From NCBI RefSeq assembly GCF_030013205.1, contig NZ_CP122648.1: a DNA stretch of 64,000 nucleotides; one strand, written 5' to 3'. This DNA comes from Escherichia coli (GTDB lineage Bacteria; Pseudomonadota; Gammaproteobacteria; Enterobacterales; Enterobacteriaceae). The notes beneath the pieces are model-generated. The model was not told the origin of the DNA. It worked only from the letters and a program-made list of their open reading frames with translations, and did not search any database. The translations under genes were made by a program, and so were the position numbers. This document shows positions 11,785-23,235 of the stretch, piece after piece (the stretch's first letter is position 1; every line of letters begins with the position of its first letter).

Positions 11785-13179
11785 TCAGAAGAAGTATTTA
11801 AAGCGAACGCGTGCGCCGTAACGGTCATCAGTATCATCACCGTGTTTTTTATCACCGTCGCTATCCAGAATGGAGTAATACGTCCCGAGGTAAATATTAA
11901 AGTTCTCCATATCCATCACATTAGCGAACTGATAAGACGCATGAATGGTGTGAATGGTGTACGTCCCTTCATCATCAATCCAGCAGTCGTTATCACAAAC
12001 TACACCGCTGAATTCATCAATCTTATTGTGCGCGTAGATATAACCGAGCTCGAAACGTTTCCACAGCGCGTTAATCCCGGCAGTGAAATCTTTCTCATTA
12101 TTAGCATCTAAATAGGCGGTATTAAGATTAACCACGACGCCATTTTCCGGATCCGTTTTCAGGCCATTCCAGGTCATGCTCATACCATAGCCGGTACGAT
12201 CGGACTGATCGACAAAATTACCCTTGCTATCGGTATAACCATAAGCATTATTTACCACGTTCGCTTCCATCGCTGCGGAAACGGTGAATTCTTCCGTCGG
12301 CGACCAGGCAATTACTGGACGCAGATAAGCAACATTTTTCTGCTGCTCCATATCGCGTCCATGATAATTACTGTCATTATATAAAGATGTTCCGTCTTCA
12401 AGTAACGTGTTTAATTCAAAATACCAGTTATCGAGTTGTTTGCTGACGAGGAAATTACCGCCAGCGTTAGAGCGCCCGCGGCCCTCTTTCATCATATAGA
12501 TATAACCGCTGCCATCGTCATAAAGATCGTTCGCAGTATTACCGGAATGTTCAACAAAGGTATCCTGATTCAGCGGGAACATATCATAGGCTTCGAAACG
12601 ACCGACTTTGACCTTCCAGTCATTCTCTTTCCCAAAGAAGAATACCGCGTCATCAATATTCACTGAACCGTGCATATCCCCCAGCGGTTGTGCGGAGAAC
12701 CCGGCGAAATAACCATTATCCAGTTTTCGCATACCGTCAAAACCTAACAGAATACGACCATTGAGATTCCACTGTTCATTAGTGGGATCGCTATTCACAT
12801 CAGCGTTGGTCATTGCCAGCAGGCCATGATTACTTTCTGCATCCATATTAAATTCTACGTCGCCGTAGATTTTTAAATCGCCATAACCTGAGAGCAAAAG
12901 ATTAGGTGAGGTGGAATTTTTCTTTGCAGATTCCGCCGTTGCCTGTCCATTTACCGGCGTATTGCCCTGGGCAGCCTTAATTTCGCGGATCTCAGCGGCT
13001 TGTTGTGTCTGCAGCTGTTTAACCTGGCTCTCTGCTTTTGCTGCCCGCATTTCTGCCGCTTCCAGGCGTTCTTCCAGCAATGCCATGCGTTGTTCCAGCG
13101 TTAAATGCTGTGTTTTTGCCATTCCGGTACTACATGCCAATAATAAACCGATGGCTAAAGATAATGTCGATTTTTTCAT
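11785..13179 (-). CDS. Putative carbohydrate-selective outer-membrane porin (LamB/ScrY-like) with N-terminal coiled-coil extension (464 aa)
   Basis: Signal peptide MKKSTLSLAIGLLLACSTGMA; heptad-like coiled coil LEQRMALLEERLEAAEMRAAKAESQVKQLQTQQAAEIREIKAAQ; aromatic-rich beta-strand body ending in terminal Phe (..RFKYFF); AT-rich coding sequence. Confidence 0.65.
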   Translation of the reverse strand: MKKSTLSLAIGLLLACSTGMAKTQHLTLEQRMALLEERLEAAEMRAAKAESQVKQLQTQQAAEIREIKAAQGNTPVNGQATAESAKKNSTSPNLLLSGYGDLKIYGDVEFNMDAESNHGLLAMTNADVNSDPTNEQWNLNGRILLGFDGMRKLDNGYFAGFSAQPLGDMHGSVNIDDAVFFFGKENDWKVKVGRFEAYDMFPLNQDTFVEHSGNTANDLYDDGSGYIYMMKEGRGRSNAGGNFLVSKQLDNWYFELNTLLEDGTSLYNDSNYHGRDMEQQKNVAYLRPVIAWSPTEEFTVSAAMEANVVNNAYGYTDSKGNFVDQSDRTGYGMSMTWNGLKTDPENGVVVNLNTAYLDANNEKDFTAGINALWKRFELGYIYAHNKIDEFSGVVCDNDCWIDDEGTYTIHTIHASYQFANVMDMENFNIYLGTYYSILDSDGDKKHGDDTDDRYGARVRFKYFF

Positions 13180-15564: not shown

Positions 15565-16624
15565 GTTACTGCAACAGTTGTGCGAAGCCAGCGCCGTTAG
15601 CGGCGATGAACAGGAGGTTCGCGACATTCTGATAAACACGCTGAAATCCTGCGTGAATGAAATCACCTTTGATGGGCTGGGCAGCTTTGTCGCCCGTAAG
15701 GGGAATAAAGGGCCGAAAGTTGCCGTTGTCGGCCATATGGATGAAGTCGGCTTTATGGTCACCCACATCGACGAGAGCGGTTTTCTGCGTTTTACCACCA
15801 TTGGCGGCTGGTGGAATCAGTCGATGCTCAACCACCGGGTAACCATACGCACACACAAGGGATTTAAAATCCCTGGTGTGATTGGTTCCGTCGCGCCTCA
15901 TGCGTTAACGGAAAAGCAAAAGCAACAACCGCTGTCATTTGATGAGATGTTCATTGATATTGGCGCGAACAGTCGCGAAGAAGCAGAAAAACGCGGCGTG
16001 GAAATTGGCAATTTTATTAGCCCGGAAGCCAATTTTGCCTGCTGGGGCGAAGATAAAGTGGTCGGCAAGGCGCTGGATAATCGCATCGGCTGCGCAATGA
16101 TGGCTGAGCTATTGCAGACGGTGAATAACCCCGAAATTACGCTGTATGGCGTTGGCAGTGTGGAAGAAGAAGTTGGGCTACGCGGGGCGCAAACCTCGGC
16201 TGAACACATTAAACCGGATGTGGTGATCGTGCTGGATACCGCTGTCGCAGGTGATGTTCCAGGCATTGATAACATTAAATATCCGCTGAAACTGGGCAAC
16301 GGGCCGGGGCTGATGCTGTTTGACAAGCGCTACTTCCCCAACCAGAAACTGGTAGCAGCGTTAAAAAGCTGTGCCACGCAGAATGATTTACCGCTGCAAT
16401 TTTCCACTATGAAAACCGGTGCGACGGATGGCGGGCGCTACAACGTGATGGGTGGCGGTCGCCCGGTTGTTGCGCTGTGCCTGCCAACGCGTTATCTGCA
16501 CGCCAACAGCGGCATGATTTCAAAAGCCGATTACGATGCTCTGCTCACGTTGATACGGGATTTTCTGACCACCTTAACCGCGGAGAAAGTCAACGCGTTT
16601 AGCCAGTTCCGTCAGGTGGATTAA
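15554..16624 (+). CDS. frvX: M42-family aminopeptidase/endoglucanase-like protein FrvX (356 aa)
   Basis: Peptidase M42 motifs (HMDEVGF, metal ligands); ATG at 15554 preceded by AGGAG; overlaps the frvB end. Confidence 0.85.
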   Translation: MNIELLQQLCEASAVSGDEQEVRDILINTLKSCVNEITFDGLGSFVARKGNKGPKVAVVGHMDEVGFMVTHIDESGFLRFTTIGGWWNQSMLNHRVTIRTHKGFKIPGVIGSVAPHALTEKQKQQPLSFDEMFIDIGANSREEAEKRGVEIGNFISPEANFACWGEDKVVGKALDNRIGCAMMAELLQTVNNPEITLYGVGSVEEEVGLRGAQTSAEHIKPDVVIVLDTAVAGDVPGIDNIKYPLKLGNGPGLMLFDKRYFPNQKLVAALKSCATQNDLPLQFSTMKTGATDGGRYNVMGGGRPVVALCLPTRYLHANSGMISKADYDALLTLIRDFLTTLTAEKVNAFSQFRQVD

Positions 16625-18372
16625 TGCTAAACGAACGCCAGTTAAAGATTGTCGATCTGCTGGAGCAACAGCCACGCACGCCTGGCGAGCTGGCGCAACA
16701 GACTGGCGTTTCTGGTAGGACCATTCTGCGTGATATTGACTATCTCAACTTTACCCTTAACGGCAAAGCCCGCATTTCCGCCAGTGGCAACGCGGGCTAT
16801 CAGCTGGAAATCTTCGAGCGCCGCAGCTTTTTTCAGTTGCTGCAAAAGCACGATAACGACGATCGGCTGCTGGCGCTGCTATTACTGAATACCTTCACTC
16901 CCCGTGCGCAACTCGCCTCGGCGCTTAATTTGCCAGAAACGTGGGTAGCAGAGCGCCTGCCCCGCCTGAAACAGCGCTATGAACGCGGTTTTTGTCTCGC
17001 TAGTCGCCCTGGTTTGGGCCATTTCATTGATGAGACAGAAGAGAAACGCATTATTTTGCTGGCGAATCTTTTACGCAAAGATCCGTTTTTAATTCCTCTG
17101 GCGGGCGTAACACGAGACAACCTTCAGCAATTATCCACGGTCTGCGACAACCAACACCGCTGGCCGCTGATGCAGGGTGATTATCTCTCCAGCCTGATTC
17201 TGGCGATTTACGCCCTGCGTAATCAACTGACCGATGAGTGGCCGCAATATCCCGGTGACGAGATAAAACAAATCGTTGAACAAAGCGGCCTGTTTCTTGG
17301 TGATAACGCTGTAAGAACCCTGACGGGGTTGATAGAGAAACAGCATCAACAGGCGCAGGTTATTTGTGTCGATAATGTGCTGGCATTGCTGCAAAGGGTG
17401 CCGGGCATTGCGTCATTGAATATTATTGATACGCAACTGGTTGAGAATATTACCGGGCATTTATTACGTTGCCTTGCCGCGCCGGTGTGGATAGGTGAGC
17501 ACCGCCAAAGCAGCATGAATAACCTGAAAGCCGCCTGGCCTGCGGCCTTTGATATGAGTCTGCACTTTATTACGCTACTGCGTGAACAACTCGATATTCC
17601 CCTTTTCGACAGCGATCTGATCGGTTTGTATTTTGCCTGTGCGCTGGAACGGCATCAAAACGAACGCCAGCCGATCATTTTGCTCTCGGACCAGAACGCG
17701 ATTGCCACCATTAATCAGCTCGCCATTGAGCGCGATGTTTTACATTGTCGGGTGATTATTGCCCGTAGCTTAAGCGAACTTGTTGCCATTCGCGAAGAGA
17801 TTGAGCCGTTATTGATCATTAATAACAGCCATTATTTACTGGATGATGCGGTCAATAATTGCATCATCGTAAAAAATATCATTACGGCTGCCGGTATCGA
17901 ACAAATAAAACATTTTCTGGCGACGGCATTTATTCGCCAGCAACCGGAGCGTTTTTTTTCTGCCCCCGGAAGTTTTCATTATTCGAATGTACGTGGTGAA
18001 AGCTGGCAACATATTACCCGGCAAATTTGTGCGCAATTAGTGACGCAACACCACATTACCGCCGATGAAGTACAACGGATCATCGCCCGCGAAAGCGAAG
18101 GCGAAAACCTGATTGTTAATCGTCTCGCCATCCCACATTGCTGGAGCGAACAGGAACGCCGTTTTCGTGGATTTTTTATTACCCTCGCCCAACCGGTTGA
18201 GGTGAATAACGAAGTAGTTAACCATGTGCTGATCGCCTGTGCCGCCGCCGATGCGCGTCATGAGCTAAAAATATTCAGCTATCTGGCAAGCGTATTGTGT
18301 CAGCATCCGGCAGAGGTTATTGCCGGGTTAACAGGATATGAGGCATTTATGGAGTTACTTCACAAGGGGTGA
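16624..18372 (+). CDS. frvR: Putative frv operon regulator FrvR (582 aa)
   Basis: 582-aa ORF with N-terminal HTH and a C-terminal PTS-EIIA-like domain; start overlaps the frvX stop. Confidence 0.85.
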   Translation: MLNERQLKIVDLLEQQPRTPGELAQQTGVSGRTILRDIDYLNFTLNGKARISASGNAGYQLEIFERRSFFQLLQKHDNDDRLLALLLLNTFTPRAQLASALNLPETWVAERLPRLKQRYERGFCLASRPGLGHFIDETEEKRIILLANLLRKDPFLIPLAGVTRDNLQQLSTVCDNQHRWPLMQGDYLSSLILAIYALRNQLTDEWPQYPGDEIKQIVEQSGLFLGDNAVRTLTGLIEKQHQQAQVICVDNVLALLQRVPGIASLNIIDTQLVENITGHLLRCLAAPVWIGEHRQSSMNNLKAAWPAAFDMSLHFITLLREQLDIPLFDSDLIGLYFACALERHQNERQPIILLSDQNAIATINQLAIERDVLHCRVIIARSLSELVAIREEIEPLLIINNSHYLLDDAVNNCIIVKNIITAAGIEQIKHFLATAFIRQQPERFFSAPGSFHYSNVRGESWQHITRQICAQLVTQHHITADEVQRIIARESEGENLIVNRLAIPHCWSEQERRFRGFFITLAQPVEVNNEVVNHVLIACAAADARHELKIFSYLASVLCQHPAEVIAGLTGYEAFMELLHKG

Positions 18373-18375
18373 ACT

Positions 18376-18400
18376 GTGTCGGATGCGCCGCATCCGACAC
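18376..18400. terminator. Palindromic REP-like hairpin between convergent frvR and yiiG
   Basis: gtgtcggatgcg-c-cgcatccgacac, perfect 12-bp arms. Confidence 0.55.
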
Positions 18401-18427
18401 TGCATTTATCACCAAAATCAAAAACGT

Positions 18428-19108
18428 TTAACGCAGGCTATTATAGTCATCGACCATTTCGTTGTACTCGCGTAACGCTCGCGGAAATGAGTCGTCGACC
18501 ATCCAGCTTGTGTTTGCATCCTGAAGTTGCTCTTTATCCCAGTCAGAGTACGGAACTTTATCTCTGACGCGGCGAACATATTTTTTAGCCTCGAGTTGAT
18601 ACTGGTCTGCCGAATTAATGAACGAGAAATTCATACCGCCTTTATCCGCTTCTTTGGCCTGCGCCACCAGCGTTTCCAGTTCAGAGACTTTCTTCATTGC
18701 CGCATCAACATCAAACTTCTCTTGCGAAATCAGGTTATTAATTTGTTTCGCTGAAATCATGACTGCCAGAGAGTAGTAGTGGAATGTTTTCCCTTCTCTT
18801 TGTTCAATATTTTTCAGTTCCGCAAGCTGGCGCTTATCGTTAATTTCCTGAATCGCCGCATGATAAGATTCTGCTACAGGTTCAAAGGCTTCAAGATTTT
18901 TTAAGAATGTCTGGTGCAGCGTTTTCCCTTTCGCAAACGCATCGTCTTTATAATTTTCCTGGGTGTAATATTTATCCATTTCGTTAATGGTATTACCCAA
19001 CGCCACGGCAGTATCAATATAACTTACCGCCACGCCATCAATAGGTTGCAGCGCAGGCGTTAACGCCACTACACGCGCTTTGTTTATAAATAAAATAATA
19101 AAATTCAC
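18428..19108 (-). CDS. yiiG: YiiG-like protein (DUF3829-type), at most 226 codons here with a GTG as the only upstream start; possibly a 5'-truncated remnant
   Basis: ORF translation recognised as the C-terminal portion of YiiG; the reading frame is closed by a stop 7 codons upstream, inside the fdhD terminator hairpin; no signal peptide or lipobox. Confidence 0.5.
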   Translation of the reverse strand: MNFIILFINKARVVALTPALQPIDGVAVSYIDTAVALGNTINEMDKYYTQENYKDDAFAKGKTLHQTFLKNLEAFEPVAESYHAAIQEINDKRQLAELKNIEQREGKTFHYYSLAVMISAKQINNLISQEKFDVDAAMKKVSELETLVAQAKEADKGGMNFSFINSADQYQLEAKKYVRRVRDKVPYSDWDKEQLQDANTSWMVDDSFPRALREYNEMVDDYNSLR

Positions 19109-19114
19109 GAAATG

Positions 19115-19153
19115 AATAAGTCCTGCAATTTAATATATATCGCAGGACTTATT
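19115..19153 (-). terminator. Hairpin terminator downstream of fdhD, abutting the yiiG ORF
   Basis: aataagtcctgc-(15 nt AT-rich loop)-gcaggacttatt, perfect 12-bp arms, 4 bp after the fdhD stop. Confidence 0.55.
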
Positions 19154-19157
19154 TTAA

Positions 19158-19991
19158 TTAATTGCTCAAACGCTGCGGATGGGTATAAACCGTTGCCCGA
19201 CCCGGTTTACAAAAACCTACCAGTGTCAGATTACAGCGCTCAGCCACTTCTACAGCAAGCGTGGTCGCGGCAGACACCGCAAACAAAATCTCTACGCCGC
19301 ACATCGCCGACTTTTGCACCATTTCATAACTGGCACGGCTGGAAACCAGTACCGCACCTTGCTGCCAGCTTTCCCCTTCTTGTGACCGGCGGCCTAACAG
19401 TTTGTCCAGCGCCACATGGCGACCCACGTCTTCATGCCCGCCGACCAGTTCGCCAGATGGCAACATCCATGCAGCGGCGTGAGTACAACCAGTCAGTTGC
19501 CCCACTGGCTGGAAATCATTGAGATGACGTAATGCATCATCCAGTTTGTTGAGATCAAACGTCTGGGTGAACGGCAGCGGCTGCACCGGTTTACCGATAT
19601 CGTTAAGCTGTTCTACACCGCATACGCCACAGCCCGTACGTCCCGCCAGCGCCCGGCGGCGCTCCTTCAACCCCATAAAGCGGCGGCTGGAAAGCTCAAT
19701 TTGCACTTCCAGACCATTACAGGAAGGAACGACATCCATACCGAAGATATCGCGCGGACTTTCGATAATCCCCTCGGAAAGCGAAAAACCGAGCGCAAAG
19801 TACTCAAGGTCTTTGGGCGACGCCATCATCACCACATGCGAAATGCCGTTGTAGACCAGCGCAACGGGAACTTCTTCCGCGACCTCATCTAACCGTGGGT
19901 GTTGTAAATCATCACGCCGCCATAACTCAATTTGACGAACACCTGTGACATTTGTCACATTTTCGATTTCTTTTTGCTGTGTTTTTTTCAC
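19158..19991 (-). CDS. fdhD: Formate dehydrogenase accessory sulfurtransferase FdhD (277 aa)
   Basis: 277-aa [31 protein letters not shown]...; divergent from fdoG. Confidence 0.9.
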
Positions 19992-20184: not shown

Positions 20185-23100
20185 ATGCAGGTCAGCAGAA
20201 GGCAGTTCTTTAAGATCTGCGCTGGCGGTATGGCAGGCACCACGGCAGCGGCACTGGGTTTTGCACCCAGCGTAGCACTCGCGGAAACCCGGCAGTATAA
20301 ACTGCTGCGCACCCGCGAAACCCGTAATACCTGCACCTATTGTTCCGTAGGCTGTGGGCTGTTGATGTACAGCCTCGGTGACGGAGCAAAAAACGCCAAA
20401 GCATCTATCTTCCATATCGAAGGCGATCCGGATCACCCGGTCAACCGCGGTGCACTTTGTCCGAAAGGCGCTGGCCTGGTGGATTTCATCCACTCCGAAA
20501 GCCGTCTGAAGTTTCCGGAATACCGTGCGCCAGGTTCTGATAAATGGCAGCAAATCAGTTGGGAAGAGGCGTTTGATCGCATCGCCAAACTGATGAAAGA
20601 AGACCGCGATGCTAACTACATTGCGCAAAACGCCGAAGGCGTGACCGTTAACCGCTGGCTCTCCACCGGGATGCTGTGTGCTTCCGCGTCGAGTAACGAA
20701 ACCGGCTATTTAACGCAAAAATTCTCCCGCGCGCTGGGTATGCTCGCGGTCGACAACCAGGCGCGTGTCTGACACGGACCAACGGTAGCAAGTCTTGCTC
20801 CAACATTTGGTCGCGGTGCGATGACCAACCACTGGGTCGACATCAAGAACGCCAACCTCGTCGTGGTGATGGGCGGTAACGCCGCTGAAGCTCACCCGGT
20901 CGGGTTCCGCTGGGCGATGGAAGCCAAAATTCACAACGGCGCGAAGCTGATTGTGATCGATCCTCGCTTTACGCGTACGGCGGCGGTGGCTGACTACTAT
21001 GCCCCTATTCGTTCCGGTACTGACATTGCTTTCCTGTCAGGCGTATTGCTGTACCTGCTGAACAATGAAAAATTCAACCGCGAATACACCGAAGCCTATA
21101 CCAACGCCAGCCTGATCGTGCGTGAGGATTACGGCTTTGAAGATGGCCTGTTCACCGGCTATGACGCGGAAAAACGCAAGTACGATAAATCCTCCTGGAC
21201 TTACGAACTGGACGAAAACGGCTTCGCCAAACGCGATACCACGCTGCAACATCCGCGCTGCGTGTGGAACTTGCTGAAACAGCACGTTTCCCGCTACACG
21301 CCAGATGTGGTTGAAAACATCTGCGGTACGCCAAAAGACGCGTTCCTGAAAGTCTGCGAATACATCGCCGAAACCAGTGCTCACGATAAAACAGCGTCGT
21401 TCCTCTACGCCCTCGGCTGGACGCAACACTCCATTGGTGCGCAAAACATTCGTACGATGGCGATGATCCAGCTGCTGCTCGGCAATATGGGGATGGCTGG
21501 CGGCGGCGTTAACGCCCTGCGCGGTCACTCCAATATTCAGGGGCTGACCGACCTGGGGCTGCTGTCGCAGAGCCTGCCAGGTTACATGACGCTGCCAAGC
21601 GAGAAGCAGACCGATCTGCAAACCTACCTTGCCGCCAACACGCCGAAACCGCTGCTGGAAGGCCAGGTTAACTACTGGGGCAATTACCCGAAATTCTTCG
21701 TCTCCATGATGAAGGCCTTCTTTGGTGATAAAGCGACGGCAGAAAACAGCTGGGGCTTTGACTGGTTGCCGAAGTGGGATAAAGGCTACGACGTCCTGCA
21801 ATACTTCGAGATGATGAAAGAGGGCAAAGTCAATGGCTATATCTGCCAGGGCTTTAACCCGGTTGCCTCATTCCCGAACAAAAACAAAGTGATCGGCTGT
21901 CTGTCGAAACTGAAGTTCCTCGTGACCATCGACCCGCTGAACACTGAAACCTCTAACTTCTGGCAGAACCACGGTGAACTGAACGAAGTTGACTCGTCGA
22001 AGATCCAGACCGAAGTGTTCCGTCTGCCATCGACCTGCTTCGCGGAAGAGAACGGTTCAATCGTCAACTCTGGTCGCTGGTTGCAGTGGCACTGGAAAGG
22101 TGCGGACGCCCCGGGGATTGCGCTGACTGACGGCGAGATCCTCTCCGGTATCTTCCTGCGCTTGCGCAAGATGTATGCCGAACAGGGTGGCGCGAACCCG
22201 GACCAGGTGCTGAACATGACCTGGAACTACGCCATTCCGCATGAGCCATCTTCAGAAGAAGTGGCGATGGAGAGTAACGGTAAGGCGCTGGCCGATATTA
22301 CCGATCCGGCAACCGGTGCGGTTATCGTCAAGAAAGGCCAACAACTTAGCTCGTTCGCCCAACTGCGCGATGACGGTACAACCTCCTGTGGCTGCTGGAT
22401 TTTCGCCGGTAGCTGGACGCCAGAGGGCAACCAGATGGCACGCCGTGATAACGCCGATCCGTCTGGCCTCGGTAACACGCTGGGCTGGGCATGGGCATGG
22501 CCGCTTAACCGCCGTATTCTGTATAACCGCGCCTCCGCAGATCCGCAGGGTAACCCGTGGGATCCGAAGCGTCAGTTGCTGAAATGGGACGGCACTAAGT
22601 GGACCGGCTGGGATATTCCGGACTACAGCGCAGCGCCTCCGGGCAGCGGTGTTGGGCCGTTTATCATGCAGCAGGAAGGCATGGGGCGTCTGTTTGCCCT
22701 CGATAAGATGGCGGAAGGTCCGTTCCCGGAACACTACGAGCCGTTTGAAACGCCGCTGGGAACTAACCCGCTGCATCCAAACGTTATCTCGAACCCGGCT
22801 GCACGTATCTTTAAAGACGACGCCGAAGCGTTGGGTAAAGCCGATAAGTTCCCGTATGTCGGAACCACCTATCGTCTGACCGAGCACTTCCACTACTGGA
22901 CCAAACACGCGCTGTTGAACGCGATTTTGCAACCAGAGCAGTTTGTGGAAATCGGTGAGTCGCTGGCGAATAAACTTGGCATTGCCCAGGGCGATACCGT
23001 GAAAGTCTCCTCCAACCGTGGCTATATCAAAGCCAAAGCGGTGGTGACCAAACGTATTCGCACGCTGAAAGCGAACGGCAAAGATATCGATACCATCGGT

Positions 23101-23235
23101 ATTCCGATTCACTGGGGCTATGAAGGTGTTGCGAAAAAAGGCTTTATTGCCAACACGTTAACGCCATTCGTCGGTGATGCGAACACGCAGACGCCAGAGT
23201 TTAAGTCCTTCCTTGTGAATGTGGAAAAGGTGTAA
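20185..23235 (+). CDS. fdoG: Formate dehydrogenase-O major subunit FdoG (1016 aa) with in-frame UGA selenocysteine at codon 196
   Basis: Tat signal MQVSRRQFFKICAGG; two track ORFs (20185..20772 and 20821..23235) share one frame and are joined by TGA at 20770-20772; molybdopterin oxidoreductase motifs throughout. Confidence 0.9.
20770..20815 (+). other. Selenocysteine UGA codon and adjacent SECIS stem-loop of fdoG
   Basis: UGA followed at once by cacggaccaacggtagcaagtcttgctcc, which can fold as a hairpin in the position expected for a bacterial SECIS. Confidence 0.7.

Follow-up and report, generated by a model that had tools for sequence, protein, structure and literature searches.

The window analysed here is a 64,000-nucleotide stretch of the Escherichia coli chromosome (assembly GCF_030013205.1, contig NZ_CP122648.1) that carries, in order, rhaM, a RafY-like glycoporin gene, frvA, frvB, frvX, frvR, an open reading frame (ORF) of 226 codons, fdhD and fdoG (fdoGHI). 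An initial annotation, made from the sequence alone, had described the 226-codon ORF as a 5'-truncated yiiG and a probable pseudogene. The features discussed below are as follows.

11785..13179, minus strand: RafY-like glycoporin gene (Pfam Porin_8, E = 1.9e-154), between rhaM and frvA
16624..18372, plus strand: frvR, the intact convergent neighbour downstream of the yiiG remnant (ORF list and PGAP annotation)
18428..19108, minus strand: the 226-codon ORF (226 aa), with a GTG start at 19108
18428..19069, minus strand: the yiiG remnant, K-12 codons 139-351 (213 codons plus TAA, 642 nt), frame intact
19062..19069, no strand assigned: deletion junction, the single surviving copy of AACGCCAC; the same junction in all 10 deletion alleles sampled
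19070..19108, minus strand: 13 non-YiiG codons (VNFIILFINKARV), the 5' end of the mechanical ORF and formerly intergenic DNA upstream of yiiG
19070..19157, no strand assigned: retained distal fdhD-yiiG intergenic DNA, 88 bp, 96-98% identical to K-12, O157 and 55989
19115..19153, minus strand: fdhD terminator-like hairpin, an inverted repeat with the ORF-bounding stop in its loop
19158..19991, minus strand: fdhD, an intact 277-aa ORF, the upstream same-strand neighbour of the remnant (ORF list and PGAP)
20185..23235, plus strand: fdoG, a single CDS of 3051 nt in PGAP

In the mechanical ORF list fdoG is split by an in-frame TGA (20770..20772, after codon 195), which we take to be the selenocysteine codon known from the alpha subunits of formate dehydrogenases, not a disruption. 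The 1-kb segment around the 226-codon ORF is 100% identical to that of E. coli strain 7/2, and at least 60 complete genomes share an identical 785-bp interval between frvR and fdhD (268 match it at 99% or more). Strains WCHEC96200 and WCHEC4533, both among the genomes identical over 785 bp, are described as ST405 (see also PMC9037040); one report assigns its isolates, which include WCHEC96200, to phylogenetic group D (PMC5762679).

The 5' end of the ORF

Upstream of the GTG the in-frame translation reads '*IAGLIHF-V...', with the stop (19130..19132) 7 codons before the GTG and inside the inverted repeat at 19115..19153, precisely as had first been described; within the repeat, the stop falls in the loop. 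Folded as RNA on the fdhD strand, this repeat forms a 15-bp stem (-19.9 kcal/mol, z = -5.1, with none of 200 shuffles as stable) that starts 5 nt past the stop codon of fdhD and has a U-rich stretch after it, and its reading as the fdhD terminator is a reasonable one. A terminator scan of the window region did not call the hairpin, likely owing to a loop of 9 nt (the limit of the scan is 8) and a tail without a clean T run, and a search of the hairpin against Rfam returned a single chance match to a miRNA model (E = 0.67).

The GTG is not preceded by a Shine-Dalgarno sequence at a usable distance, in agreement with the earlier description: the sole upstream AGGA, at a distance of 12 nt, is base-paired as part of the 3' hairpin arm. 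Likewise, the reported lack of a signal peptide and lipobox, judged by direct reading of the N-terminus, holds for VNFIILFINKARV, which contains no Cys. A scan for sigma-70-like promoters over positions 18300..19300 found no site.

Extent and boundaries of the deletion

The window was aligned to the yiiG locus of K-12 (L002, strain C600) and to an allele coding for 346 aa. Relative to K-12, alignment followed by exact comparison revealed one clean gap of 478 bp. Two 8-bp direct repeats, AACGCCAC (L002 2257-2264 and 2735-2742), border the deleted segment in K-12, one of them at yiiG codons 139-141 and the other 57-64 nt upstream of the ATG. The segment missing between the repeats comprises 470 nt, and the window retains a single copy, at 19062..19069; both repeats thus flank the segment in the intact allele, and one is kept at the junction. 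The deletion took yiiG codons 1-138, the start codon, the ribosome binding site (Shine-Dalgarno sequence) and a further 56-64 nt upstream, a figure given as a range because the repeat makes the junction ambiguous. The N-terminal loss that had been proposed is therefore real, with 138 codons missing by alignment to K-12 in place of the roughly 125 first estimated from a length of about 350 aa for YiiG elsewhere, which agrees well with the 351 aa of the K-12 protein.

On one side of the junction, the remnant is collinear with K-12 yiiG (30 mismatches in 642 nt, 95% nucleotide identity) and differs from the C-terminal 213 residues of the K-12 protein by 9 substitutions. This high nucleotide identity, together with the conserved position between frvR and fdhD, identifies it as the orthologue of yiiG. 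On the other side, the first 13 codons of the frame that had been called yiiG-like as a whole (19070..19108) are not YiiG; they align to K-12 intergenic DNA at least 65 nt upstream of the yiiG ATG, and are open and in frame by chance. The fdhD-yiiG intergenic region, comparison of which with reference genomes had been recommended at the outset, is affected in one part: the 88 bp that adjoin fdhD and contain the hairpin are intact, and the 56-64 nt before the ATG are lost.

Short direct repeats at both ends of a deletion, with one copy kept, are the classic scar of illegitimate recombination. An ancestral yiiG of about 350 codons would have lost 478 bp by such recombination between the 8-bp repeats AACGCCAC, and the pattern, a scar from which the mechanism must be read, suggests replication slippage (slipped-strand) or RecA-independent deletion. 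Codon 139 was fused in frame to upstream intergenic DNA that is open for 20 codons back to the stop in the fdhD terminator loop, which gives rise to the misleading 226-codon ORF. Consensus promoter and terminator scans of the region upstream of K-12 yiiG returned nothing. The native promoter, which these scans could not locate, was probably removed by the deletion as well.

Some E. coli carry a 2-gene island between the hairpin upstream of yiiG and fdhD, at a site equivalent to window ~19154-19157, which encodes a ~611-aa ATP-binding protein and a 768-aa TPR/hypothetical protein (L007 4087-7269; L017 2915-5470; L018 2915-5467; L008 1-3488). The island could be a defence system and its site looks like an integration hotspot; it is present in an EPEC O127:H6 strain that has no yiiG, and absent from the window. 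We considered insertion or excision of this island as the source of the deletion and rejected it: relative to the hairpin, the island is on the side of fdhD, away from the junction. In the spacer between frvR and yiiG, the window differs from K-12 by a 6-bp indel at ~18411-18416 (window CACCAAAATCAAAAACG, K-12 CATCAAAAACG), also found in the island-bearing intact alleles L017 and L018.

Consequences for the protein

K-12 YiiG (351 aa) begins with MKRNLLSSAIIVAIMSLGLTGC, which includes a lipobox Cys, and its residues 73-349 match positions 2-285 of the Pfam family DUF3829 (PF12889). The window ORF matches the same profile strongly (E = 2.6e-74, 250.8 bits), covering only positions 64-285 of 285, and thus lacks a complete DUF3829 domain, whereas the proteins of both K-12 and BRG214 match positions 2-285. 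It also lacks a lipoprotein signal, as well as a start codon and ribosome binding site of its own, since the K-12 ATG and Shine-Dalgarno sequence lie inside the deleted 478 bp. NCBIfam had no model for the remnant; for K-12 YiiG it gave only a sub-threshold lipoprotein match.

In an alignment of 34 family sequences, 14 of the 28 invariant columns fall within the deleted residues 1-138 (K77, Y81, C84, N86, R98, Y99, W102, G109, P110, G112, E114, Y118, G119 and C131). The AF2 model of K-12 YiiG (mean pLDDT 83, above 90 for most of residues 68-350) places a disordered segment at residues 1-67 (signal peptide, lipobox and Pro/Ala-rich tether) ahead of an all-alpha domain of nine helices, and helices 70-102 and 125-139, along with the conserved loop between them, are within the deletion. 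The deletion removed the signal peptide, lipobox Cys, Pro/Ala-rich linker and, according to this model, the first two of the nine domain helices. Even if translated, the remnant could not be exported or lipidated, and a fifth of the domain, with half of the conserved positions, would be missing from it.

Polarity of the change

Full-length homologues of YiiG are found both in close relatives and in outgroups: the proteins of E. marmotae, E. albertii and E. fergusonii have 351 aa, those of Salmonella enterica 355-377 aa, and those of Betaproteobacteria (Ottowia, Undibacterium) 346-354 aa. Orthologue lengths in the comparison suggested by the initial annotation are 340-377 aa, and not about 226 aa with the same start. 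Intact YiiG alleles vary in length (330, 337, 346, 349 and 351 aa), and K-12 differs from the 346-aa allele (L003) by a 15-nt indel in the Pro/Ala-rich tether (L002 ~2530-2545).

These data bear on the opposite polarity, in which the short form would be ancestral and K-12-type strains would have gained the 5' part by insertion. We found nothing in its favour. Other Escherichia species, Salmonella and Betaproteobacteria have proteins of about 350 aa that share these N-terminal domain residues, the Pfam model itself covers the 63 positions that are missing, and the short form lacks a start codon or signal peptide of its own. The outgroup lengths and the alignment of invariant residues refute a gain of the 5' part, the chance of which we regard as negligible.

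Distribution and decay of deletion alleles

An 80-nt probe across the junction matched at full length in 1359 of 5426 complete E. coli genomes (25%), and the deleted 470 nt were present at 80% coverage or more in 3882 of the 5426 (72%). These counts sum to less than the total, consistent with mutually exclusive states; the remaining ~185 genomes are in other states, including an IS1 insertion (H21) and absence of yiiG (EPEC O127:H6). Of 2841 matches to the junction probe, 2 were on records classed as plasmids, perhaps because pieces of chromosome were picked up by plasmids or because the replicons were wrongly assigned. The junction is carried by ST405 (phylogroup D) and by the type strain ATCC 11775, presumably a B2 strain, among others.

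Mis-assembly can, in principle, leave short direct repeats at a junction as well, and a collapsed repeat or mis-join, that is, a sequencing or assembly artefact, would then account for the short form; nothing specific points this way. The junction is present in 1359 independently sequenced complete genomes spanning many laboratories, hosts and sequencing platforms, and at least 60 of the sequences are 100% identical over 785 bp. This count refutes an artefact, to which we attach next to no probability.

The deletion alleles sampled occur in two settings. In the window, 7/2, 3059, U1 and 18KM2445 the frv operon is present; ATCC 11775, MS15052, CB209, Ecol_542, E302 and DS566-1 lack it, and in these genomes the glycoporin gene abuts the remnant, with the breakpoint replacing the last six yiiG codons (loci L004-L006 and L012-L014). 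Lineages with the same lesion carry more disabling mutations: a 1-bp frameshift is common to ATCC 11775, MS15052, CB209 and 18KM2445, and a further internal deletion of 135 bp is found in Ecol_542, E302 and DS566-1. The alleles of ATCC 11775 and MS15052 show 5 non-synonymous and 3 synonymous derived changes, counted as absent from the six intact alleles sampled. Such decay is typical of a gene released from selection. The allele of the window itself carries no further disabling mutation and four derived substitutions absent from the sampled intact alleles (3 synonymous, 1 non-synonymous), and with so few changes and an intact frame, relaxed selection cannot be shown for this allele itself.

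Annotation and coding status of the remnant

In strain 7/2 (NZ_CP023820.1), PGAP annotates the locus as a pseudogene, CRT46_RS21740, of identical extent (window 18428..19069), with the note 'YiiG family protein; incomplete; partial in the middle of a contig; missing N-terminus', and does the same for strains 3059 and U1. The truncated yiiG is thus already annotated as a pseudogene in RefSeq, and is a real but ordinary feature, not a new one. Public collections, on the other hand, also hold called proteins of 219-227 aa from the remnant (P0039 and P0053). P0053, a 'YiiG family protein' of 227 aa that represents a cluster of 335 member sequences, starts at the codon after the hairpin-loop stop, an isoleucine codon in the window, and its C-terminal tail is frameshifted. 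Both called proteins are likely annotation artefacts.

Calls of this kind by some depositors or gene callers could be taken to mean that the ORF is a genuine shorter gene, transcribed by read-through of the fdhD terminator and translated from the GTG at 19108 or from an internal start, in which case a DUF3829 fragment whose function is new or residual would be made in the cytoplasm. The frame is indeed open for 226 codons and identical in at least 60 genomes, and on its strand fdhD ends 49 nt upstream, from where a read-through transcript could extend over the remnant. However, the ORF lacks a Shine-Dalgarno sequence at a usable distance and a promoter-like site in the scan, it is separated from fdhD by a strong hairpin, and its product would be without signal peptide, lipobox, 14 of 28 invariant family residues and two of nine helices. 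Moreover, sister lineages with the same junction have frameshifts and further deletions, which a selected gene would not tolerate, and PGAP rejects the ORF as a CDS. Taken together, these observations make a genuine short gene highly improbable. The ORF is almost certainly a non-functional 5'-truncated pseudogene of the lipoprotein gene yiiG (DUF3829/YiiG family), as first suspected on the evidence of sequence and here backed by the 478-bp gap, the PGAP pseudogene call and full-length orthologues, and the remnant is probably not expressed. Gene callers should not report the 226-codon ORF as a protein.

Single or repeated origin

The deletion allele is old and common, and several features suggest that it probably arose once and was then moved by homologous recombination. 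The junction is identical in every deletion allele sampled, and all of them carry a SNP ~45 nt inside the junction that among intact alleles is seen in one only. Recombination at the locus is apparent in 18KM2445, in which the half nearer the junction, with the frameshift, is of the ATCC 11775 type and the distal half resembles the window. By their 3' halves, the deletion alleles divide into two deep haplotypes, both of which are also found among intact alleles; had the deletion recurred independently, these haplotypes would be explained equally well. A deletion that happened repeatedly at the AACGCCAC repeats is accordingly a possibility to be kept in mind, if clearly the less favoured one. 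In a neighbour-joining tree of the remnant the deletion alleles are not monophyletic, but the site pattern is visibly mosaic, and such a tree can therefore not separate single from recurrent origins.

Discussion

The gene that was truncated is termed an 'uncharacterized lipoprotein' in the literature. A sequence search of the PDB with YiiG gave no match, and a Foldseek search with the AF2 model gave only weak matches (E ~0.05) to Bacteroides DUF3829 structures (3iee, 3rh3 and 4yjw), which are themselves uncharacterised and offer no functional lead. Several reports nevertheless touch on the gene or its surroundings: in E. coli, the yiiG promoter and start codon (ATG to ATT) were mutated under antibiotic selection (PMC11742677); frameshifts in a YiiG-family gene arose in populations of Stenotrophomonas maltophilia during experimental evolution with ciprofloxacin, tobramycin and SXT (PMC11047544); clinical isolates have an insertion hotspot for mobile elements close to yiiG (bioRxiv 10.1101/527788); and a MarA ChIP peak falls inside yiiG in ETEC (PMC5684230).

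Occurrence of the same scar in ST405 and in the type-strain lineage, the mutations in yiiG and in the S. maltophilia YiiG-family gene under antibiotics and the insertion hotspot make it conceivable that loss of yiiG has been adaptive and not neutral decay, the 478-bp deletion having spread between phylogroups by recombination because silencing of the periplasmic lipoprotein was advantageous. Any such advantage could conceivably lie in envelope or antibiotic tolerance, or in extraintestinal lineages. These hints concern other yiiG mutations or loci, or the spread of the scar, and not the effect of the natural allele, and we consider positive selection for the loss unlikely. As a genome feature, the remnant is of little weight, being a correctly annotated pseudogene of an uncharacterised lipoprotein. 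The scar is nonetheless a handy lineage marker, with one exact junction in ~25% of E. coli genomes; and as yiiG is repeatedly hit in experimental evolution, a natural null fixed in major clinical lineages such as ST405 is a resource on the role of YiiG.

The deletion resembles other short-direct-repeat (microhomology) deletions of E. coli in its two flanking 8-bp repeats, one of which is kept; here the scar alone is known, and the scar does not tell the pathway. With yiiG of K-12 (b3896), an uncharacterised lipoprotein gene, the remnant shares its site between frvR and fdhD, and differs in lacking codons 1-138, the start and the ribosome binding site. Remnants in frv-less genomes (ATCC 11775, MS15052, Ecol_542, E302 and DS566-1) have the same junction and retained intergenic stretch as the window; unlike the window, they carry the frameshift or the 135-bp deletion, have a 1-bp deletion in the formerly intergenic DNA and have lost the last 6 codons. 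The closest counterpart is CRT46_RS21740 of strain 7/2, which is the same allele as that of the window, with no difference between the two.
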